Shown piece after piece: positions 1,063 to 14,033 of a DNA stretch of 40,665 nt. Position 1 is the stretch's first letter; each line of letters begins with the position of its first letter. A program made the translations under genes and the position numbers. The stretch is from a virus. Lineage: Duplodnaviria > Heunggongvirae > Uroviricota > Caudoviricetes. The stretch is taken from the IMG/VR virus record IMGVR_UViG_2687453300_000007; one strand, written 5' to 3'. The notes beneath the pieces are model-generated. The model had not been told where the DNA came from. It ran no database searches and saw only the letters and a list, made by a program, of their open reading frames with translations.

Positions 1063-1404
1063 TCAGCCAACATTGCGGCCTGATCGGGGTGATTTTTGGG
1101 TAATACCGATTGAAACCTGATCGCCCTCCGACTGAATAGATCCATCAAGAGAGAGAGCCGGAGCAATCTGCCCGGCGACAGGTAGCGTCTTATCTTTTAT
1201 TAGCCACAGCATGTATTTTTCAAAGCGATCGACTTGCAGAACCGCCTCAACGATTTTTGCTCTAGCGTTCTTTTGCCCCGATTCGTAATTCCTTATGGTT
1301 GCCAAAGACAACCCAGTAATATCCGCAAACTGCTTTTGTGTTAACCCTTCCGCCTTACGTATCTGACGTAACTTTTTTGCGTAGTCTATTGACAAGATAA
1401 CCAT
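1063..1404 (-). CDS. Immunity repressor (P2 C-like, HTH)
   Basis: About 113 aa from ATG 1404. Helix-turn-helix LTQKQFADITGLSLATIRNYESG. Divergent from the downstream Cox-like gene, as in the P2 C/cox switch. Confidence 0.75.
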   Translation of the reverse strand: MVILSIDYAKKLRQIRKAEGLTQKQFADITGLSLATIRNYESGQKNARAKIVEAVLQVDRFEKYMLWLIKDKTLPVAGQIAPALSLDGSIQSEGDQVSIGITQKSPRSGRNVG

Positions 1405-1450
1405 TTGAGTATTAACCTCTCGCACAAAGATAACCTTTTGGTTATCTTTA
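1389..1450. promoter_or_regulatory. Putative early promoter and repressor operator sites
   Basis: TTGACA at 1389..1394 and TATTAA at 1410..1415 (spacer 15). Half-site AGATAACC at 1395..1402 and a perfect palindrome AAGATAACC-TTTT-GGTTATCTT at 1428..1449, lying between the divergent repressor and Cox-like starts. Confidence 0.4.
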
Positions 1451-1508
1451 CAAGCCAAAACAAACCATCACAAGGCGCGACAAGCGCACCAACGCAAGAG
1501 GATAACAA

Positions 1509-2030
1509 ATGCGGGACTTCATTGCCGATAAAGAGTTATCTGACCACCAACCACTTCAGGAAAGTGACGCACTCAGCGGATCCATTGATGCCGCCAACGA
1601 CGACGAGCACGAAGAAAACAAGAAAAAGCGTTCCTACAAAAAAGGAGCGACTTTGCGGCTGGATGGTCCGATCGCCGGGCTTTGCTCTCTGGAAAAAGGC
1701 GCGGCATATATTGGGCTAACAAAATCTGCACTGCGCGTAGCCATTCATCGCGGTCAAATGCCGGGACACAAGACGCGCACAAACCCGGAAGATGAAAACT
1801 CAGACGGAGTATGGTGGTTTAACGCCAAAGAGTGGGACAAGTTGGCTGATGAGCTACCAGAGCACGAGCCCCCAGAATGGCACAACTGGAAAAGTTACTG
1901 GACGTATGACCGCCAGAAAAGGAAGTTCTCTCCAGCTAATAAAGAAGACTGCCAGACCATTAACGGTAAGCGAGTTTATACAGGCAGAAGCTCAAAACTG
2001 GACCAACTCAGAAACAACAGAGGCAACTAA
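1509..2030 (+). CDS. Cox-like excisionase/regulator (putative)
   Basis: ATG 1509 preceded by AAGAGGA. Contains an AlpA/excisionase-type HTH (GAAYIGLTKSALRVAIHRGQMPG). At 173 aa it is longer than P2 Cox, so the assignment is tentative. Confidence 0.45.
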   Translation: MRDFIADKELSDHQPLQESDALSGSIDAANDDEHEENKKKRSYKKGATLRLDGPIAGLCSLEKGAAYIGLTKSALRVAIHRGQMPGHKTRTNPEDENSDGVWWFNAKEWDKLADELPEHEPPEWHNWKSYWTYDRQKRKFSPANKEDCQTINGKRVYTGRSSKLDQLRNNRGN

Positions 2031-2034
2031 TCGT

Positions 2035-2457
2035 ATGAAAACAAACACGTCAGATTTCACAATAACTATTTCAAAAAATGACCAAGCATTAATTGATAAC
2101 CTGAAATACCTTGCGGAAAAACATAATAACGGACGAATTGCAATTAATTTACGACACATCACAGGAGTAACAATTGTAACCAGTTACTGGCATCTATATC
2201 TAATCGCTAAATCAGTACTTGAAAACAAAGATTCTGTTGTCAATGGAAGAGATATAGATACTCTTCCTGCACAAATCAAACCGATAGCCTATCAATTGCG
2301 TAATCGTTTTAAAAATGAAGGTGGGATTATATTTGACTTTCCCGCAGCTGTAGCCGTGAGCTTCTCTCGGGGGGATATACTTCACTCATTTCGTTTTGCT
2401 CTATCAGGTGACGAGACATTATGGCAGCTAGAAGATGCCGGGAGCAGCCCGGCATAA
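2035..2457 (+). CDS. Hypothetical protein, AT-rich early-region cargo
   Basis: 140-aa ORF from ATG 2035 in the frame of the 1792..2457 track ORF. The coding sequence is markedly AT-rich compared with flanking prophage DNA. No family recognised. Confidence 0.4.
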   Translation: MKTNTSDFTITISKNDQALIDNLKYLAEKHNNGRIAINLRHITGVTIVTSYWHLYLIAKSVLENKDSVVNGRDIDTLPAQIKPIAYQLRNRFKNEGGIIFDFPAAVAVSFSRGDILHSFRFALSGDETLWQLEDAGSSPA

Positions 2458-2463
2458 ATCAAA

Positions 2464-2655
2464 TTAAAAATCAACCAGTTGTGTGACAGGTGGGTATTTA
2501 CGCTGAATTTTGTCAGTTACTAACGCCAGTAATATATGAATCTCTGTGTTTAATGCGTCTTTATCACCCGTCGTTTTTACCCTGGGAGGGTTAATGTTAT
2601 CCAGAGCAGCACTAAGTTCACTCAACAAATTAACAACTTTTTTATCTTCTGACAT
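2464..2655 (-). CDS. Hypothetical small protein (63 aa), convergent with 2035..2457
   Basis: Track ORF. The two convergent genes are separated by only 6 bp. Confidence 0.3.
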   Translation of the reverse strand: MSEDKKVVNLLSELSAALDNINPPRVKTTGDKDALNTEIHILLALVTDKIQRKYPPVTQLVDF

Positions 2656-2792
2656 GAAAACCTCTTAACAATTTAATTAAACATAAGCCAGGACCTGAAC
2701 CGGCCAGTCCAAGTCCTAGACACACAAAAAAAATACCACAAATCAATACAAGGTGACACGAGTACACCTTACCGAAGGTACAGAGTTTTAAT

Positions 2793-3143
2793 ATGAAACT
2801 ACAGCGCAATTCTTCACAGCAGCGCTTCCGCAACGGTGCGGAACGCCATGCTAACCGTTTCGCTACCAGTGCATCACGTAGCAACTCTCGCTACAGCCTG
2901 AGCGAAACACACGCAACGCCGGATGGCTACCCAGTAAAACAAATTGGTGAACACACTTGGCTGATTGAAAAAGCAGGAATCGTGGTTCACAGATGCCAGC
3001 GCAACCCATTTACCGGAAACCGCATTTTTGCACTGAGCAACGGCGACAATCAGTTCGGGCAGGATTTCACATTATACGAAGCACTTCGCACGGTTGATCG
3101 TCTGCTTCACGGGCAAAGTTTTATTAAACAGGCTGATTTATAA
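2793..3143 (+). CDS. Hypothetical early protein (116 aa)
   Basis: Track ORF in the early operon. No family recognised. Confidence 0.4.
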   Translation: MKLQRNSSQQRFRNGAERHANRFATSASRSNSRYSLSETHATPDGYPVKQIGEHTWLIEKAGIVVHRCQRNPFTGNRIFALSNGDNQFGQDFTLYEALRTVDRLLHGQSFIKQADL

Positions 3144-3153
3144 CAGGTGCTTT

Positions 3154-3432
3154 ATGACCAAAGAGCATGCACAAGGTGTATTTATCCGTTTTATTGATTT
3201 TCGCGGTGAACTGTTATTACGCGCATCAGCCATTGACGGAGTTGTTCCATCCGAAAAAAATGCAGCTACTTACGTTTATCTGAACGGCACGCGCCTGACC
3301 GTAGAACTTCCGTACCAGACTGTACACGAAATCATTAGCGAAGCGGAAAAAGCACGTAAGACTAATGGCGATGAACCCTATATCGAAATTATTTGTATGG
3401 ATTCAGAAGCAGAAATTCAGAAAGCAGATTAA
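3154..3432 (+). CDS. Hypothetical early protein (92 aa)
   Basis: ATG 3154 in the frame of the 3094..3432 track ORF, placed just after the preceding stop. Confidence 0.45.
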   Translation: MTKEHAQGVFIRFIDFRGELLLRASAIDGVVPSEKNAATYVYLNGTRLTVELPYQTVHEIISEAEKARKTNGDEPYIEIICMDSEAEIQKAD

Positions 3433-5086: not shown

Positions 5087-5408
5087 GAAACCAGAGCATG
5101 CACACACAAAAAAACCGCTTGCCATGCCGCAATCAGTCAGGTTACATTTCCGCTGCACCTCATAAAACGGGTGCCGGGTTTCGCAGCCTGCTGACTACAC
5201 AAGCGCACAACCGCGCCAGCGGTTTTTTTGTGCGTACTGTATTGCCACGTTTTTTTCGCGTCAGAATTATGGCGGGGCGTACGGGGCCGACTTCGGTCGG
5301 GCCGGGTTCTTGTGTAGCCGGTACTGCGAACCTCGTACGTCTCGCCACCCACAGTTTCGCAGCTCTGGATGGTGAGTTTTCACAACTTACTACACAAGGG
5401 GCCACACC

Positions 5409-5639
5409 ATGGCAAACCGCAAACAGCACCGCGCTATCGCGGAGCGTCGTCACATCCAGACTGAAATCAACCGCAGACTTTCCCGCGCATCACGCGTCGC
5501 GCAAATCATGCACATCAATATGCTGCATGAGCGCAGCCACGCACTATCAAACATTTATTCCGCCTCTGTTTTCAGCTATCTGGCGGATGATCTGCACGAG
5601 CTTCAACAGCTCATCCAGCAGCAAAACAAACTCCATTAA
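5409..5639 (+). CDS. Hypothetical early protein (76 aa)
   Basis: Track ORF immediately downstream of the structured non-coding stretch. Confidence 0.4.
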   Translation: MANRKQHRAIAERRHIQTEINRRLSRASRVAQIMHINMLHERSHALSNIYSASVFSYLADDLHELQQLIQQQNKLH

Positions 5640-6083: not shown

Positions 6084-8906
6084 ATGACGGCAGAGTACCT
6101 CAGGGACTGGCAACAACCGCGCCACGCAGTGGGGCGTGAAGGAACGGGGATCCCCGCTCCTGAATCCGCGCTTTCCTCCTGGCTGGATGCCTACCGGGCA
6201 GAGAACGAGCGCCGCCAGGAAATGGCTGATGCGGCGTTCTCAGCCACGCCGCTGGGCAACCTGATTAATAAAAGCCTGGACGCACAGGAAAAACAGGACA
6301 AAACCATCACACTGGCAGGAGACGCCAGAAAACAGGCACGTGGCGCGGTGGATGAAGCCATGGCCTCGCTGCGCCTGCTGCCGTCCTATCTGCGCGATCC
6401 GCTTATTCGCCACCTCTCCTTCCTGCGCAAAAAACAGGAAGCCGATCGCCGGAAAGGCAAAAAGAGCTGGCAGGCGGAACGCTATGCACGCGGAACCCTG
6501 CGCAAAATATTCGAACGTCTGGATAGCACTGACGGACGCTGGCTGACACCGGGTTATCGCTCCCTTGCCGGACGCGAACGCCTGGACGATTTGCTTTACC
6601 TGCCGCAGCTCAACAAACACCAGATACAGACGCTGGCCACCATGACGGCGGCGATGTTCAGCAGCACCTTCGAAAAACTCTGCGATGGCTTTGGCGCGAC
6701 CGATGGCGAGCTGACCATGGATGTAACCCTGAAGGCGTATCAGATGCTGGCCCGCATGGCGTTACACCTGCACGCCATGCCTCCACATTATGACGCACTG
6801 ACAACAGACAAAGACCGGAGGAACGAACCGGACACGGAGCTGCTGCCGGGCGCAATCCTTCGCCTGACCTGTGCGGAATGGTGGAAACGCAAACTGTGGC
6901 TGTTACGTTGCGAGTGGAGAGAAGAACAACTCCGCGCCGCCTGTCTGGTTTCCAGAAAAACATCACCCTATCTGAGCCAGGACGCGTTAAGCGAGTTTCG
7001 CGCACAGCGCGAGAAAACACGCGATTTCCTGAAAAGTTTCATGCTGGAAAATGAAGACGGGTTCACGATTGATCTCGAGACAGTGTATTACGCGGGAGTA
7101 AGTAACCCGGTTCACCGTAAGGCAGAAATGATGGCCACCATGAAGGGACTGGAACTTCTGGCCGAAGCCCGTGGCGACAAAGCGGTGTTTCTGACTGTCA
7201 CCTGCCCGTCAAAATACCACGCCACAACGGAGAACGGTCATCCGAATCCCAAATGGAACGGGGCCACAATGCGCGACTCCAGCGATTACCTGGTTAACAC
7301 GTTTTTTGCGGCGGTCCGCAAAAAACTGAACCGCGACGGCCTGCGCTGGTATGGCATCCGCACGGTGGAGCCTCATCATGACGGCACCGTGCACTGGCAT
7401 ATGATGGTCTTTGCACATCCGGAAGAAATCGACACCATTGTGTCCCATACCCGCGATATTGCCATTCAGGAAGACCGCCACGAGCTGGGCAATGATATTA
7501 CTCCGCGCTTTAAGGTGGAGTATGTCGACGGCTCAAAAGGCACGCCAACCAGCTACATCGCCACCTACATCGGAAAGAACCTGGACAGCCGCGCCGTGGA
7601 TGGCATCGACCCGAAAACGGGCAAGCCACGCGTGGACCACGAAACCGGAAAATCAATGGCCGAGAGCGTGGAGCGCGCCATCGGCTGGGCGCGCCTTCAC
7701 CGGGTCCGTCAGTTCCAGTTCTTTGGCATCCCCTCCCGTCAGGTGTGGCGTGAACTGCGCCGCCTTGCCAGCCAGATGGCACGCAATCCGGAAGGCCCGC
7801 AACGGCTGAAAGATGATGCAATGGATGCGGTACTCGCTGCCGCCGATGCCGGGTGTTTTGCCACCTACATTGAAAAACAGGGTGGCGTGCTTGTTCCACG
7901 CAAGGACTACCTGATTCGCACCGCCTACGACCTCGCAGATGAGCTGAACGATTACGGCGAACAGAGCGTACAGATTTACGGGATCTGGTCACCACTCATC
8001 GGGGAATCCTCCCGTGTGTGCACGCATCCGGATAACTGGAAGCTGGTAAGACGTAAACCGGAAGCGGAAGACAGCGCCCGCGAAAATGGTTTTGACCTTC
8101 AGGGCGGCCCTGCCGCCCCTTGGACTCGTGGCAATAACTGTCCCCGTGTACAGGAAACGGACAACAACGGGACAGAACAGCCGGAAGAACGGCCAGCACC
8201 GTGGCCGCAGCTCCCTGACGGCGTTGAAGTGAACGAATGGATGCGCTCACTGAAACGACACGAACGCCGGGCGCTGATGCGTTCGCTTCGTGACAAACAG
8301 GCAAAAAACAGCAGCGATGAAATGCAGAGCTGGACACAGAGCCGCAAACAGCAGCGGCCTTTGCCTGATAACCACGAATTACTCGCTAAAGAATGGCGGG
8401 AGTCTGCTGAATCTCTCGGCCTGCATATCGGTGAACAACAGATGCAGCACCTGTTACGGGGCGGCAGTCTGTACGTTGACGGCAGCATCATTGCACCGCA
8501 GGGATTTGAAATTGTACGCAAACCGGATACCCGCCCGGACAGCCGAATCACGCAGCTCTGGCAGCGCCTGAGCCGTAATCATGGCGTAAGCAGCACGGAG
8601 ATCCGCCATAACCCGGTCGCCAGCTATCTGGCACAGCTGGGGGCATCAGACCCTGAAGCCGCCGCACGCCTGGCATCCACACTTCAGCAGGGCCAGAACA
8701 CCATGAAAACACCCGTTACCGTGCTTTCTGACATGCTGCGCGCCATCCGCGACGCAGAGCACGCACAGAGAATCAGTGAAACCACTGAACGCGCCAGCCG
8801 CAAAGCAGACCTGCTGCGGGGTGGCCTGACCAGTGGAAACAAAAAACAGACAGAAACGGGACTTACGAATCCCGTAAATGAGCAAAAAACGCGCAGCGAT
8901 ATATGA
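6084..8906 (+). CDS. A: Rolling-circle replication initiation endonuclease (P2 gpA-like)
   Basis: 940-aa ORF carrying the HUH-type motif region …TVEPHHDGTVHWHMMVF… and tyrosine-bearing segment …YIATYIGKN… typical of P2 A-family proteins. Confidence 0.9.
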   Translation: MTAEYLRDWQQPRHAVGREGTGIPAPESALSSWLDAYRAENERRQEMADAAFSATPLGNLINKSLDAQEKQDKTITLAGDARKQARGAVDEAMASLRLLPSYLRDPLIRHLSFLRKKQEADRRKGKKSWQAERYARGTLRKIFERLDSTDGRWLTPGYRSLAGRERLDDLLYLPQLNKHQIQTLATMTAAMFSSTFEKLCDGFGATDGELTMDVTLKAYQMLARMALHLHAMPPHYDALTTDKDRRNEPDTELLPGAILRLTCAEWWKRKLWLLRCEWREEQLRAACLVSRKTSPYLSQDALSEFRAQREKTRDFLKSFMLENEDGFTIDLETVYYAGVSNPVHRKAEMMATMKGLELLAEARGDKAVFLTVTCPSKYHATTENGHPNPKWNGATMRDSSDYLVNTFFAAVRKKLNRDGLRWYGIRTVEPHHDGTVHWHMMVFAHPEEIDTIVSHTRDIAIQEDRHELGNDITPRFKVEYVDGSKGTPTSYIATYIGKNLDSRAVDGIDPKTGKPRVDHETGKSMAESVERAIGWARLHRVRQFQFFGIPSRQVWRELRRLASQMARNPEGPQRLKDDAMDAVLAAADAGCFATYIEKQGGVLVPRKDYLIRTAYDLADELNDYGEQSVQIYGIWSPLIGESSRVCTHPDNWKLVRRKPEAEDSARENGFDLQGGPAAPWTRGNNCPRVQETDNNGTEQPEERPAPWPQLPDGVEVNEWMRSLKRHERRALMRSLRDKQAKNSSDEMQSWTQSRKQQRPLPDNHELLAKEWRESAESLGLHIGEQQMQHLLRGGSLYVDGSIIAPQGFEIVRKPDTRPDSRITQLWQRLSRNHGVSSTEIRHNPVASYLAQLGASDPEAAARLASTLQQGQNTMKTPVTVLSDMLRAIRDAEHAQRISETTERASRKADLLRGGLTSGNKKQTETGLTNPVNEQKTRSDI

Positions 8907-8982: not shown

Positions 8983-9942
8983 ATGAAAATTTGTATCGAC
9001 GACGGCTCCACCAACATCAAGCTGGCATGGACTGAGAATGGCGAACGCCGCAACGCCATCAGCCCGAACAGCTTCAAGTCGGAATGGTCTGCGCCGTTCG
9101 GTGGCATGCAGCCCGCGAACTACATGCTTGATGGCGTGCGCTATGGTTTTGATCCGGTTAGCGATCGCTTTGTCCAGACGACCGACACGCAATACCAGTA
9201 CAGCGATGTGAATGTAATCGCCATTCATCACGCGCTGGTCAAATCAGGCATCACGCCACAGGAGGTGGATGTGGTTGTCACCCTGCCACTGAGCGAGTAT
9301 TTCGACACAAACGCACAGCCGGACATGGCCAACATCAACCGCAAAAAAGCGAACGTTATGCGCCCGGTGGAATACCAGAACGGCGAAGCATTCACTATCC
9401 GTAACGTGCGGGTTATGCCTGAATCCATTCCGGCTGGCTTTAAAGCACTGGCTGACATGAGTCCGTTTGAATCCCTGCTGATTGTGGATTTAGGCGGAAC
9501 CACGCTGGATGTGGCAAAGGTTCAAGGGCAACTGGCAGGTATCAGCCAGGTGTTTTGCGATCCACACGTAGGCGTTTCCCTGATGGCCGATGCCGTACTG
9601 TCGGTGATGGCCACTAACGGTATGCGCACCAGTCACCACATCGCCAATACCATTATCGAACATCGCCATGATGAAGCCTGGCTGCGCCAGCACATCCACA
9701 ATGACGCGCATTACGCCAGCCTGATGGCGGTTATTCGTGAAAAGGAAGAAACACTGAAACAACGCGTGATCCGCGCGCTGGCGGTTTTTTCGGGTTACGG
9801 GCGGGTGATGGTTGTCGGTGGAGGGGCGGAGATTGTGGCACCCGCTATCCGCGAAGTCTGCGGAGTTAATGCGACTTTCATCGCGGACGGGGTGCCACAG
9901 TTTGCTCTGGTTAATGGGCTGTACGCAATGGACAAGGAGTAA
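8983..9942 (+). CDS. parM: ParM/StbA-like actin-type segregation ATPase
   Basis: N-terminus MKICIDDGSTNIKLAW…ISPNSFK…YSDVNVIAIHHAL closely parallels plasmid R1 ParM as I recall it (MLVFIDDGSTNIKLQW…ISPNSFK…YSDVNVVAVHHAL). Also has the DxGGxT phosphate motif (IVDLGGTTLD). Confidence 0.8.
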   Translation: MKICIDDGSTNIKLAWTENGERRNAISPNSFKSEWSAPFGGMQPANYMLDGVRYGFDPVSDRFVQTTDTQYQYSDVNVIAIHHALVKSGITPQEVDVVVTLPLSEYFDTNAQPDMANINRKKANVMRPVEYQNGEAFTIRNVRVMPESIPAGFKALADMSPFESLLIVDLGGTTLDVAKVQGQLAGISQVFCDPHVGVSLMADAVLSVMATNGMRTSHHIANTIIEHRHDEAWLRQHIHNDAHYASLMAVIREKEETLKQRVIRALAVFSGYGRVMVVGGGAEIVAPAIREVCGVNATFIADGVPQFALVNGLYAMDKE

Positions 9943-9946
9943 ACCA

Positions 9947-10261
9947 ATGACGACACCAACCAGACGGATAAGTTTCTATCTGAAGCCCGCCGCCGTCAAG
10001 AGTGAACAGGAGGCGTGCAATTACCTCGATAGCCTGCCAGCCTCCGAACGCAGCCGCGCGCAACGCGCGGCCTTTCTGGCTGGGCTAGCGCTCATAAAGC
10101 GCAACCCAGCATTTGCCTACTGGATGGCCGAATGGCCAGAGGACAACCTCCCCTTCAATACCGTTAGCATCAAGGAAACATACCAGGATAATCAGCCTAG
10201 CGGAGTTGAATGCAATTTTTATAAAATAAAAAAGAATATTCAGACCTTATTCCCAGAATAA
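9947..10261 (+). CDS. parR: ParR-like centromere-binding protein (putative)
   Basis: ATG 9947 with AAGGAG SD 7 nt upstream, 5 bp after the parM stop. Segment RRISFYLKP…YLDSLPASERSRAQRAAFLAGLAL resembles the RHH N-terminus of R1 ParR (…LDSIPQGERSRLNRAALTAGLAL…). Confidence 0.65.
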   Translation: MTTPTRRISFYLKPAAVKSEQEACNYLDSLPASERSRAQRAAFLAGLALIKRNPAFAYWMAEWPEDNLPFNTVSIKETYQDNQPSGVECNFYKIKKNIQTLFPE

Positions 10262-10344
10262 TCTGATAATTGTATGTGAACTAATAAAATACAGACCAAC
10301 ACATCATTCTGGCACCCTTGCTAACAGGGTGCCAATGTTTCAAA

Positions 10345-11187
10345 TCATGATGAAATTGCCGAAGTTTTTTTATCGTGCTGAAGTACCGCAAATGCCATTA
10401 AAACCTCAAGAGAATAGCGGCGATAATACTTAACAAAACCATAATAAAATACTCGGGATGCAGCAATACAAAACAAGAGAAGAAAACAAAAAGGTAACAG
10501 TCTGATATTTATATCTATTAAAAAGGATAGAAGGAGCAGGAACATAAGCAACCAGACTGAAGCGAGAAAAACAAATGTAATGTTTCTACAAAAACCATAC
10601 AAAGCAACATAGTTTTGCATTTTCACCTGATGATTTTTAGAATGTTCATACACATAATGATAAGCAAGGCGAAAAAGATCGCCCCTCAAGCCCTTACGTC
10701 GATATAGCGTAGATACAGAAAAAACATTTATATAACCATCTCGTATTTGCGGCCAAAAGACTTTAATAAGTATAGAATGCAGTGTGGTTTTATGATGTTC
10801 TGCTTTATCAAAAGCTGATACAGGAAATAAAAAAACTCCACGAATAAAATTAACTATACTGAACTTAGTATTATGTCGTTTTATTTTCAGGGAGCTTCTT
10901 TTAGAAAACAGATAAATTGAAGGATACCCAAGTTTACTGTTCATGTATTTTTCAATTAAACAGGATGATAGAATAGATATGAAGTGACCTGAAATATATG
11001 ATAGAACGATTAATACCACATATATAAATACACTTATTATTTCTTTATATTTCAGGATATGGTTAAGAATACCTTCTATATAAACAGGGTTAATTTCAAT
11101 AGAAAACAAAAAAAGGATAAACAGGAATAACCCACCTGGAATTAGATAGCCCAAAAAGTCATAAAATGAAAACGGATTCTGTGTCAC
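10345..11187 (-). CDS. Hypothetical polytopic membrane protein (280 aa, about 4 TM)
   Basis: GTG start at 11187 with strong SD (AGGGGGAAG). Two N-terminal and two C-terminal hydrophobic helices flank a soluble stretch of about 125 aa. AT-rich with atypical codon usage. No family recognised. Confidence 0.6.
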   Translation of the reverse strand: MTQNPFSFYDFLGYLIPGGLFLFILFLFSIEINPVYIEGILNHILKYKEIISVFIYVVLIVLSYISGHFISILSSCLIEKYMNSKLGYPSIYLFSKRSSLKIKRHNTKFSIVNFIRGVFLFPVSAFDKAEHHKTTLHSILIKVFWPQIRDGYINVFSVSTLYRRKGLRGDLFRLAYHYVYEHSKNHQVKMQNYVALYGFCRNITFVFLASVWLLMFLLLLSFLIDINIRLLPFCFLLLFCIAASRVFYYGFVKYYRRYSLEVLMAFAVLQHDKKTSAISS

Positions 11188-11226
11188 ACTTCCCCCTGTG
11201 TTACTTGTAAATTAAAGGGTAAAACA

Positions 11227-11724
11227 TTATTTGTTTTTCCGTAAAGGATTAGCTTTCCATCTTCTTACTAACCATTCGAATTCTTGATATGTAGTATCCG
11301 AATTAATGCTTTCTCTGATTGCTTTAATTAATGGCTCGGCAATATCATATGTCTCTACAACTGTTGTGTAAGATGTTCTTTTTATCATTTTTTCATCATA
11401 AATACCTTCACGAATACTTACAGCAACTCGCTCGTAAAAATTTAAAATATATTGAAATTTTCGACGCTCGGCCATTTCTTCATCTGTTATTATGCAACCA
11501 TCACAAGGAAAAACATAAGAACGAAATGATTTGCCTGAACGATGCACTTGTTTCAGGGTATGCAATGACTCTATATATTGCATATCTTGCCGACTCTCAA
11601 AAAGAAAGTTGGCCGTTTGAGTTTTTTTTGCGGTACGCACATTGTAGATAATGGTTCCAATGGCAACCAAAACGCCAAGCAGAACAATAGCATTGCTGAT
11701 GATTTGTAGTGTTATTGGGTTCAT
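11227..11724 (-). CDS. Hypothetical single-pass membrane protein (165 aa)
   Basis: N-terminal TM helix (ITLQIISNAIVLLGVLVAIGTIIY) followed by a soluble domain of about 135 aa. Lies 39 bp upstream of the 280-aa gene on the same strand. AT-rich. Confidence 0.6.
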   Translation of the reverse strand: MNPITLQIISNAIVLLGVLVAIGTIIYNVRTAKKTQTANFLFESRQDMQYIESLHTLKQVHRSGKSFRSYVFPCDGCIITDEEMAERRKFQYILNFYERVAVSIREGIYDEKMIKRTSYTTVVETYDIAEPLIKAIRESINSDTTYQEFEWLVRRWKANPLRKNK

Positions 11725-11738
11725 CCTATTTCATCCAT

Positions 11739-11765
11739 AAAAAAGGCGGGGAGCAAATCCCCGCC
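11739..11765 (-). terminator. Intrinsic terminator/attenuator immediately upstream of the 165-aa gene
   Basis: On the minus strand: 8-bp GC stem GGCGGGGA / TCCCCGCC with a 5-nt loop, followed by TTTTTTAT. It ends 14 nt before the ATG at 11724. Confidence 0.6.
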
Positions 11766-11785
11766 TCATTAGAGGTCAACGTAGC

Positions 11786-11821
11786 TTAGAAACCATCAAA
11801 TTCATCATACATTTTTTTCAT
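11786..11821 (-). CDS. Putative 11-codon leader peptide (MKKMYDEFDGF)
   Basis: Minus-strand ATG 11821 preceded by GAGGGGG SD at 5-nt spacing. Stop at 11786..11788, about 20 nt upstream of the terminator stem. Confidence 0.3.
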   Translation of the reverse strand: MKKMYDEFDGF

Positions 11822-11921
11822 ATCAACCCCCTCATAGAAATCATAACCACGTTTTGTGGTTTTTGTGACGTATAAACTACATCAAAGGCAAGCCACGGTC
11901 AAATATATAGGCATGCTTACC

Positions 11922-12020
11922 TGCACAAAAGTGCACAAATTTGCACAATTTTTTTGAACGACTTTTTACCCTTCCGGCCCGCATGGCGGCTGGATCCGTC
12001 AAGGATCCGTGCGTGCACAA
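11922..12020. repeat. Iterated TGCACAA heptamers at 10-bp phasing, plus GGATCCGT direct repeat
   Basis: TGCACAA at 11922, 11932 and 11942 (exact 10-bp period) and again at 12014. GGATCCGT at 11992 and 12003. Located in non-coding DNA between the cargo operon and the orphan gene. Confidence 0.55.
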
Positions 12021-12320
12021 AAAAACGCGCTTTTTCTGCGCGCAGGTGACGGGGGAACAGCCCGCGTTTCAGGGGGTAAATAGCATTCCCTGAACGATGT
12101 CGCAGAGACACAACAGAATGGCCATATTTCTCACGCTGAGCATGAAAAAGGCGTGAGGGCTTTTGATTTGATGGGGTGAAAGGTAAGGCCGTCAAAATCG
12201 CACTGAGGCAGCGAGAACATGCAGTCAACGCGGTGGAATTGCGTAAGAGTCTGACCGTCGATGGTGGCGATAAACTGGAAGGCGTCGTGAAATTATCTGA
12301 TTGATACAGGAGCTGGAGAG

Positions 12321-12347
12321 CCGGGGCATAAATTTTTTATGCCCCGG
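12321..12347. repeat. Near-perfect 27-bp palindrome
   Basis: CCGGGGCATAAATTTTTTATGCCCCGG, with no flanking U-tract on either strand. About 100 bp upstream of the 174-aa gene. Confidence 0.5.
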
Positions 12348-12447
12348 CGAAGCAGCAGACAAGCGAAGCGCGTCAGCGATACGGCACCTTGCCGACCATA
12401 CTTCATAAGTGCAAAATACGAGCAAAGAAATCAATGGAGGCTGTCTT

Positions 12448-12972
12448 ATGGTCATTAATTACAAGCAGTTAAGAGAAAAACGGGAGCAGGTAAAGGAGAG
12501 CTTTCGCCGCAATGAAGATCTGACCCCGCTTGTACGCCTTGCCCAGGGCATTGTTGATGCTTATGAAATCTCGCTGGAGCTGCCATCACAGACCTGGACA
12601 GATAGCGACGGTAATCGCCAGCATTACGTTTCATGCGGACTGGAAGCAGCCGAAGGATTTCGCAGAATGCCTTTATCCCAGATCCCTGCCGCTACCCCCA
12701 AAGCACGGGGCAGCAATGATGAGCGAAAACTGACTTTTAGTATTGAAACGGTGGTTGACGACACACCTGGCGAAGTCGCGTTCGTGCACACTCCTGTTTC
12801 GATCGCAATGTATAACGATGAAATACAGGTTCGCGTTAATAATAATATCGTGCCACTTAAAGAAGGTAATTCACCCTACACCACCGTTTGTGAAGCCATT
12901 CAATATTACGTTCTCTCTGAAATTGATAATCTCAAGCCTGACGGCACCCAGAAAATGGTTCAACTCTGGTAA
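12448..12972 (+). CDS. Hypothetical protein (174 aa) between the cos region and portal gene
   Basis: ATG 12448 with GGAGG SD 7 nt upstream (the track ORF starts at an upstream GTG). Convergent with Q. No family recognised. Confidence 0.5.
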   Translation: MVINYKQLREKREQVKESFRRNEDLTPLVRLAQGIVDAYEISLELPSQTWTDSDGNRQHYVSCGLEAAEGFRRMPLSQIPAATPKARGSNDERKLTFSIETVVDDTPGEVAFVHTPVSIAMYNDEIQVRVNNNIVPLKEGNSPYTTVCEAIQYYVLSEIDNLKPDGTQKMVQLW

Positions 12973-12977
12973 AAAGG

Positions 12978-13004
12978 ACAGCCCCATCACGGGGCTGTTT
13001 TTTC
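12978..13004. terminator. Bidirectional intrinsic terminator between the 174-aa gene and Q
   Basis: Stem ACAGCCCCATCACGGGGCTGT with TTTTTT on the plus strand and a T-rich run on the minus strand. Confidence 0.6.
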
Positions 13005-14033
13005 ATCAAGAAGAGCATAAGAGTTAAAACGGATCACCTCTTCGCCAAGCCAGTCATTGATGTGCTTCATAGCCTCCATAACGGGCATCAGCTCGTTAAT
13101 TGCGTAAACCCGCGCTGCCTTCTCCACATCGCCAAACGCACTTTTTTCGCCCGGCATCGCCCCCATCAGTTGCGGCGGAACGCGGTGCGCAGCCAGCACA
13201 TCATCACGGGATGCCGCCTTAACATTCATGAATTCATCTTTTGCGGTGATCTGCTGGAACGGCAAAATTTGCACCCCCTCTTTGCCCCCGTTGGGCGCAT
13301 GAATGAGCACGTTTTTAAACGCACCACCACCACGTGCCCCCTGTAGCGTTTCTTTCAGGGAGTCCATGCTTTCGCGGTTTACCTGCGCTGCACCGATGTA
13401 GATGATGCACCCGGCGTGGGATCCGTTGTCGTAGTACAGTTTTCTGAACATGTCCGCCGAATGAGAAAGGCTGGCCGAGAGTAATGCGCCAAGATATTCC
13501 GGCATGCCGTAGATTTCCTGGTTAATATCCGGATTCATCAGGTGGCACACTTTGCCAGGACGAAACTGAAACGCGTCCTTGCCATCCTGCACATACCACC
13601 ATGATTCAAGATCGCTTCCGCGTCGCATGTATTTCGCCAGGGCGTGCCGTAATTTAAGCGGTTCGCCGAGCATATTGCTTCGAAGCTCAAGGAATGCGTT
13701 ACCGAACACAAACCAGTCCAGCGCCAGCGCCGAGAAATCCTGCCGGGAAAGCAGCGGGTGCGGGATGTAGCAACCGAGTAATACATTGCGCTTAAAGTAA
13801 AGCGCAGACTGATGCCAGGACGTTTGCCGGGCTGCTCTTGCCAGACCGTACCAGTCCACCGGGGTTTCATACCACCGCCCGTTATCAGCACAGTACATAT
13901 TGTCCAGCAGGTCATGCCCGGTCAGGCGATAAGGACCATCAAATGTGAATGCACTGAGCGATGATTCTTTCCTGAGCGCATCAGCGAGATCAATGCGTGA
14001 ACTCATGCGCACTTTTTTATTTTTTCTGCTCAT
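12987..14033 (-). CDS. Q: Portal protein (P2 gpQ-like)
   Basis: 348-aa ORF, P2 Q-like in size and position (leftward, adjacent to P, near the cos side). Confidence 0.85.
   Translation of the reverse strand: MSRKNKKVRMSSRIDLADALRKESSLSAFTFDGPYRLTGHDLLDNMYCADNGRWYETPVDWYGLARAARQTSWHQSALYFKRNVLLGCYIPHPLLSRQDFSALALDWFVFGNAFLELRSNMLGEPLKLRHALAKYMRRGSDLESWWYVQDGKDAFQFRPGKVCHLMNPDINQEIYGMPEYLGALLSASLSHSADMFRKLYYDNGSHAGCIIYIGAAQVNRESMDSLKETLQGARGGGAFKNVLIHAPNGGKEGVQILPFQQITAKDEFMNVKAASRDDVLAAHRVPPQLMGAMPGEKSAFGDVEKAARVYAINELMPVMEAMKHINDWLGEEVIRFNSYALLDEKTAP

Follow-up and report, generated by a model that had tools for sequence, protein, structure and literature searches.

The window, meaning the whole stretch of 40,665 nucleotides analysed here, is a P88-like prophage (Xuanwuvirus, Peduoviridae, P2-like). 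Between positions 1400 and 3200 it is 100% identical to Escherichia phages vB_EcoM-569R5 and vB_EcoM-705R2, as well as to a prophage of an O25b:H4-ST131 strain, and chromosomal copies of the prophage adjoin dmsA. Its left end (Table 1) runs from the integrase and repressor genes through cox to a DUF4761 gene, after which small early genes continue. Between cox and the DUF4761 gene lie two converging genes, ORF140 and ORF63, referred to below with their homologues as the ‘big’ and ‘small’ genes. A sequence-only reading had proposed such a convergent pair after a Cox-like gene, and its coordinates prove exact, the two genes being separated by 6 bp (2458-2463). The ORF140 frame is mechanically open back to position 1792; the annotations in ON470599, PV468777 and RefSeq all start the gene at 2035.

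Table 1. Features at the left end of the prophage and alternative cargo in related loci (positions refer to the window unless a locus is named)
Feature	Position	Strand	Remarks
Integrase gene	1-1008	−	
C-type HTH repressor gene	1063-1404	−	
Cox-like regulator gene, 173 aa	1509-2030 (TAA 2028-2030)	+	Pfam Phage_Cox 1.9e-07; phrog_23196 1.3e-116; upstream border of the cassette
Indel, 688 bp	2028-2715		Alignment with E. coli PRO_A-1504 (L007); junctions share 1 nt only (C)
ORF140 (‘big’ gene), 140 aa	2035-2457	+	ATG 2035 to TAA 2457; homologues, dN/dS
Short GC hairpin GCCGGGAGCAGCCCGGC	2435-2451		Terminal part of ORF140; on the − strand, 12 nt past the ORF63 stop; sequence reading
ORF63 (‘small’ gene), 63 aa	2464-2655	−	ATG 2655 to stop 2464; homologues, dN/dS
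Shine-Dalgarno AAGAGG	2661-2666	−	5 nt before the ORF63 ATG; sequence reading
Hairpin in predicted ORF63 5′ leader, 14-bp stem	2688-2719	−	MFE −21.8 kcal/mol, z −2.67; 0/200 shuffles fold as well
Extended −10-like element TGGTATTTT (TGnTAnnnT)	2730-2738	−	Predicted start near 2723
DUF4761 early gene	2793-3143	+	Pfam DUF4761 2.2e-68; downstream border of the cassette, conserved backbone anchor of the slot
78-aa orphan gene (MTQKSVPVYTPSELECL...)	L077 2602-2838; L141 2578-2814; L082 3164-3400	leftward	dN/dS 0.06; weak sub-threshold BssS similarity
~155-aa orphan gene	L054 2608-3075	leftward	phrog_5286, function unknown

Several other features of the prophage can be recorded here. In the intergenic switch between C and cox (1389-1448), TTGACA is read at 1389-1394, and AGATAACC is present in two direct copies (1395-1402 and 1429-1436), together with an inverted copy, GGTTATCT, at 1441-1448; these repeats look like C-repressor operators around Pe. 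Further along the early region, GenBank PV468777 annotates an ash-family remnant and an adjacent gene for a 76-aa ‘derepression protein’ (P4 epsilon-like by name), at window positions 5098-5358 and 5409-5639. The gpA-portal hotspot of the prophage occupies 8983-12986, between gpA (6084-8906) and the portal gene (12987-14033, − strand), and carries a ParM/StbA-like actin (8983-9942) and a Plasmid_stab_B protein (9812-10261). GC content falls to its minimum for the window (29.5%) inside this hotspot, in a stretch with two leftward genes encoding a 279-aa protein without a Pfam match (10345-11187) and a DUF4760 protein (11227-11724).

The break in composition claimed for the convergent pair is confirmed. 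GC content is 38.5% in ORF140 and 37.0% in ORF63, against 50.0% in cox, 49.3% in the DUF4761 gene and 52.0% in the window, and third-position GC is 0.29 and 0.31 in the two genes against 0.54 in cox. The proposal that the pair had been inserted after the Cox-like gene is borne out by comparison with P88 and with E. coli PRO_A-1504. In P88 the cassette is absent, cox and the DUF4761 gene are 37 nt apart, and homology to the window resumes at 2786. PRO_A-1504 shares its integrase and C repressor proteins with the window, and its cox gene is 99.6% identical along the 519 nt that precede the junction; the genome lacks precisely the indel block, so that both genes are missing together. This block, with 38.1% GC, falls in the lowest 3.3% of all 688-bp windows. 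The TAA stop codon of cox is itself supplied by the cassette; without it, as in PRO_A-1504, cox gains 12 codons and encodes 185 aa. Since PRO_A-1504 retains the promoter-like element to the right of the gap, and since only 2 of 272 matching genomes lack the block, its state is more likely to have arisen by deletion than to be an ancestral empty site.

The cassette is found in 270 of 5,426 complete E. coli genomes (∼5%), including UTI89 and many ST131 strains, and the E. coli carriers hold a single chromosomal copy. Of 272 E. coli genomes matching the query, 270 have both genes. Beyond these genomes, a word-indexed search of 5.8 billion proteins returned only copies at ≥96% identity, tblastn against INPHARED three identical phage records only, a plasmid collection two identical copies only, and a metagenome scan only copies of the E. 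coli type; two scans of GTDB representative genomes gave no further relatives. Among 13 E. coli haplotypes no frameshift is seen, and synonymous and non-synonymous changes stand at 3:5 in ORF140 and 2:3 in ORF63; these numbers show no sign of constraint and are too small to judge selection.

Distant relatives of the pair were reached by an exhaustive HMMER search of 1.84 billion representatives, which detected a 138-aa Salmonella homologue of ORF140 (library-wide E 2.7e-7; 126 residues aligned by BLASTP at 33% identity). Its locus (L008) is a P2-like prophage with integrase, repressor and Cox genes, in which the ‘big’ homologue comes after cox, separated from it by two short hydrophobic ORFs; next to it, in convergent orientation, lies a 62-aa ORF with 39% identity to ORF63. 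A Logan contig (L010), the IMG/VR prophages L022 and L034 and a second P88-like clade (L069, L132-L135) also carry the pair. It thus occupies the position after cox in five further P2-like prophage lineages (L008, L010, L022, L034 and the L069 group). Identity to the window is 16-31% for the ORF140 homologues in alignment A8 (up to 33% by BLASTP) and 24-39% for those of ORF63, which converge on a ‘big’ homologue in every case. The stop codons of the pair overlap by 4 nt in L135 and in three lineages of Salmonella type (L008, L022, L034), the genes abut in L069 and L132-L134, and L010 has a mutated stop and a longer gene overlap. Both reading frames are preserved across lineages at 39-58% nucleotide identity, with dN/dS values of 0.25-0.45 for ORF140 and 0.2-0.4 for ORF63, estimated at saturated synonymous sites. 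ORF140 and ORF63 are real genes.

The surroundings of the pair vary: it is found behind no fewer than five types of cox, and the gene downstream of it differs as well. Horizontal acquisition, as suggested by the sequence-only reading, is supported by this diversity of cox types, by the absence of the cassette from P88 and many relatives, by its deviant GC content and by direct repeats in two lineages. In the latter, the cassette is bracketed by a 31-36-nt direct repeat (L008, 5986-6021 and 6751-6786; L022, 3744-3774 and 4451-4481). One copy spans the ribosome-binding site and opening seven codons (MK[IL]T[TI]ED) of ‘big’, and the other lies where the next rightward gene starts. The copies are 707-765 bp apart, a distance similar to the 758 bp that separate the two start codons in the window, and the window version has no 31-36-nt repeat of this kind. 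In L034 (5685-6080) and L010 (229-633), the ‘big’ gene is separated from cox by a gene for a 131-134-aa protein, which at its N-terminus has weak similarity to the P2 GpO scaffold/protease (phrog_73, E 2.5e-05), a sequence that is odd at this site.

The interval between cox and the DUF4761 gene was surveyed in 80 related IMG/VR loci with DUF4761 as anchor. It behaves as a variable slot, either empty as in P88 or filled by a 68-aa membrane protein, by an ORF140/ORF63-type pair or by other cargo, and in many of the 80 loci it is empty or carries other cargo. The commonest alternative is a rightward gene for a 68-aa predicted membrane protein (MTSNITSAILAIMFIEIGVIAIYLFRKL...), directly 3′ of cox (L067, L071, L092 and many others). 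In a further arrangement, a ‘big’ homologue with a longer tail is combined with an unrelated convergent gene of 78 aa (L077, L137, L141) or ∼155 aa (L054, L140), and in L082 the 78-aa gene is present without any ‘big’ gene. Since unrelated genes can fill the leftward place in relatives, the partner is exchangeable and an obligate toxin-antitoxin pairing is not established. Beside the 78-aa gene, the core of ‘big’ is under purifying selection (dN/dS 0.19), and its swapped C-terminal tail is unconstrained (dN/dS 2.2), so that the swap junction simply lies inside the 3′ end of the ‘big’ gene. A polymorphic-toxin scheme, with the ‘big’ tail matched to its partner, was discarded on the same values, as core and partner are constrained and the tail is not.

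Cargo slots are well documented in P2-like phages. A preprint (10.1101/2024.10.15.618418) describes P2 hotspots at gpA-portal (old/tin), at Z/fun in the tail region and at tail-CI; a cox-proximal site is not among them, and the present cassette differs from these in lying between cox and DUF4761, inside the early operon. The cox-DUF4761 slot is a previously undescribed cargo slot of P2-like prophages.

The orientation of the two genes suggests separate routes of expression. ORF140 begins 4 nt past the cox stop, and the terminator scan gave no + strand terminator-like site in 1300-3100; on these grounds ORF140 is probably part of the early Pe operon transcript. ORF63 is preceded by a Shine-Dalgarno sequence whose purine-rich character is retained in the population variants at 2663 and 2666, and further upstream by an extended −10-like element. 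The motif TGnTAnnnT is found exactly once in the 130-nt upstream region of each of 11 out of 11 leftward genes, at 75-83 nt from the ATG in 10 of them and at 41 nt in L082. Its base rate in the window is 35 per 81,330 positions, which makes its occurrence at equal distance in four unrelated sequence groups very unlikely by chance, for a motif that was defined post hoc. The predicted promoter and leader are common to three unrelated kinds of leftward gene, namely the ORF63 type, the 78-aa gene and the ∼155-aa gene.

Between this element and the ribosome-binding site, a hairpin is present in every lineage folded or read (all but L082), formed each time by unrelated sequence. As the lineages do not consistently keep a T-run behind the hairpin, a general role as terminator or attenuator was rejected, and a stem-loop at the 5′ end of the mRNA appears the better reading. 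The short hairpin at the end of ORF140 was likewise set aside as a canonical terminator: it has no T-run on either strand and is absent from the terminator scan. Nor did the scan give any − strand terminator-like site downstream of ORF63, including the interval between ORF63 and the C gene, so that the leftward transcript probably continues antisense into ORF140 and cox. Rfam gave no match in 1300-3300.

The proteins themselves offer few clues to function. Both are soluble (GRAVY −0.17 to −0.63), ORF140 near-neutral and ORF63 mildly acidic. The ORF63 family shares a conserved M-x-x-D-x-K...L...L...KYP pattern and, with helices read by eye from the sequence rather than computed, seems to consist of two helices with an INPP-type loop between them and the conserved KYP motif at the end. 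In ORF140, residues ∼30-66 and ∼91-127 form a candidate duplicated strand-strand-helix unit (hhalign 75%, E 2.4e-5; also a second BLASTP HSP), which tentatively points to an internal duplication in the ‘big’ family. No significant match was obtained in Pfam, PHROGs, NCBIfam or PADLOC for ORF140, ORF63, 10 ‘big’ homologues or seven ‘small’ homologues; in PADLOC-DB v2 the two window proteins have no match even at E ≤ 1. A similarity of the ‘big’ family to DUF1408 was dismissed, being sub-threshold (E 0.022) and confined to one of 10 members. No DNA-binding domain was detected in either protein, no HTH family matched any of the 10 ‘big’ homologues, and neither protein is hydrophobic. Profile searches of the PDB with alignments A5, A6 and A8 gave no match. 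AlphaFold2 reached a pLDDT of 42 from the single sequence and 50 with a five-sequence alignment, and Foldseek with these low-confidence models as queries gave no match at E < 0.4 in the PDB or BFVD. The WP accessions of the two proteins are cited in no paper found. ORF140 and ORF63 thus define two undescribed protein families, absent from Pfam, PHROGs, NCBIfam, PADLOC and the PDB. Conserved core early genes of known function, which would have contradicted the idea of acquired cargo, are therefore not what the pair represents, as the cassette is accessory and its families are undescribed.

Comparison with known systems places the cassette within the well-known moron and hotspot theme, its genes and slot being undescribed. 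Like the P2 morons old, tin and Z/fun, it is optional cargo of deviant composition, absent from close relatives and lodged in a recurrent slot of P2-like phages. Its leftward gene has a predicted promoter, which would allow expression from the repressed prophage, and is probably active in the lysogen. The cassette differs from the P2 morons in that no terminator of its own was detected on the − strand downstream of ORF63, in that one gene, ORF140, would be on the lytic transcript, and in that its genes are unrelated in sequence to old, tin and fun and have no PADLOC match. P22 sieB/esc and the prophage-mediated defence and counter-defence systems of mycobacteriophages are exclusion systems with a self-protecting partner. 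The cassette would resemble the sieB/esc type in combining a lysogen-made product with a linked early-lytic product; there is no homology, and the likeness is an analogy in logic only.

With type II toxin-antitoxin systems the cassette shares two small adjacent genes that are inherited or lost together on a mobile element. Type II genes form an operon in the same orientation, whereas ORF140 lies on the + strand and ORF63 on the − strand, and the genes converge in all lineages; no toxin or antitoxin family is matched, no DNA-binding antitoxin domain is found, and the partner is exchangeable. Type I systems, with a hydrophobic membrane toxin and an antisense RNA, do not fit either, as both products are soluble and both are conserved as proteins. 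In phage 186, cII follows a cox/apl-type gene, and 186 CII is a helix-turn-helix DNA-binding establishment regulator. The apl-cII-pE arrangement of 186 and the cII/OOP arrangement of lambda resemble the cassette, where a gene after a cox/apl-type regulator is faced by a leftward, here predicted, promoter antisense to the early operon. However, ORF140 lacks a detectable HTH and does not resemble CII, a conserved protein is encoded on the predicted leftward transcript, and many relatives dispense with the cassette.

Several explanations of the pair have to be weighed. That one or both ORFs might be chance reading frames in an AT-rich spacer is rejected: the lack of family-library matches and the low-confidence AlphaFold models would agree with it, but frames, lengths and motifs are kept across lineages, dN is lower than dS, and a strong Shine-Dalgarno sequence precedes ORF63. 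It is also rather unlikely that the two genes are neighbours only, with ORF63 as an interchangeable lysogen-expressed moron and ORF140 as an unrelated optional early gene. On this account they would travel jointly because they abut, with stops that overlap or lie 6 nt apart, leaving no room for recombination between them. The partner swaps and the 78-aa gene standing alone in L082 mean that adjacency could indeed be mere linkage, and the account gains further from the single promoter and leader type that serves three unrelated leftward genes and from the constrained core and free tail of ‘big’ beside the 78-aa gene, as for a recombination junction in the 3′ end. What speaks for coupling instead is that ‘big’ and ORF63-type genes stay together in six lineages, down to 22-40% protein identity, despite reshuffled flanking genes. 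In addition, among some 10 lineages, a small sample, no ORF63-type gene was seen without ‘big’ and no ‘big’ gene without a leftward partner, and the joint loss in L007 points the same way.

A toxin-antidote function, either TA-like or of the abortive-infection kind, is improbable. ORF140 would then be a host-directed toxin and ORF63 a constitutive antidote against leaky Pe, or the roles would be reversed. The small two-gene module, its tight co-inheritance and joint loss in L007, and the leftward partner beside every ‘big’ gene would suit this function, as would L136, in which ‘big’ is frameshifted and the small gene intact, the usual order of decay of toxin and antitoxin; that frameshift, however, falls in an A-run and may be a sequencing error. 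Moreover, the genes are convergent and not co-transcribed, unrelated genes can replace the partner, and the proteins show neither hydrophobicity nor a detected DNA-binding domain. The earlier suggestion of a TA-like or anti-defence module is conjectural: Pfam, PHROGs, PADLOC and NCBIfam gave no match to a TA, defence or anti-defence family. A strict cognate pair is disfavoured by the purifying selection that maintains ‘big’ beside unrelated leftward genes. Control of the lysis-lysogeny decision is highly improbable as the function of the cassette. A leftward antisense RNA through ORF140, cox and possibly C and int would damp the early operon and favour lysogeny, with ORF140 as modulator. Like 186 cII, ORF140 comes right after a cox/apl-type gene; a promoter-like element points leftward, no − strand terminator was detected between ORF63 and C, and C, int and ORF63 are all on the same strand. 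Yet the ORF63 protein sequence is conserved, so the transcript is not solely an antisense RNA; no helix-turn-helix was detected in ORF140; and many related phages do without the cassette.

The preferred reading, which stands at about an even chance, is that ORF140 and ORF63 form a mobile cassette encoding a coupled, oppositely regulated pair. The genes are accessory, mobile and co-inherited, with conservation of the promoter-like motif, of the leader hairpin and of the ribosome-binding site; what is deduced, from gene arrangement and sequence signals, is when each gene is expressed and that their products interact. The region 2031-2792 is a mobile accessory cassette of ∼760 bp in the variable slot between cox and the DUF4761 gene, in which gene orientation would impose opposite control on ORF140 and ORF63. 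In the lysogen, the C repressor would shut Pe and leave ORF140 silent, and upon infection or induction ORF140 would be made. ORF63 would be read leftward from its own predicted extended −10 promoter through a hairpin-capped leader, and would probably be made in the lysogen in the manner of a moron, until early transcription running head-on through the gene turned it down. Under such control, ORF63 could serve in the lysogen as an effector or protective factor, with ORF140 as its partner or antagonist in the early phase, an interaction that we infer. A more ambitious version seems doubtful: that the two genes are a new lysogeny-coupled two-protein system outside the known TA, defence and anti-defence families, resident in an undescribed cox-proximal hotspot, in which ORF63 acts in the lysogen as an exclusion factor, defence factor or host modulator, opposed by an early-lytic antagonist, each silencing the other by head-on transcription.

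Both products are annotated only as ‘hypothetical’, even though they are carried by pandemic ST131 strains and by the model uropathogen UTI89. Were the genes unrelated morons, the cassette would be a case of ordinary phage mosaicism. If they are an effector/antidote or defence/counter-defence couple switched by convergent transcription, they would represent a compact new type of module, and the cox-proximal slot would be a new place to seek prophage-borne functions.
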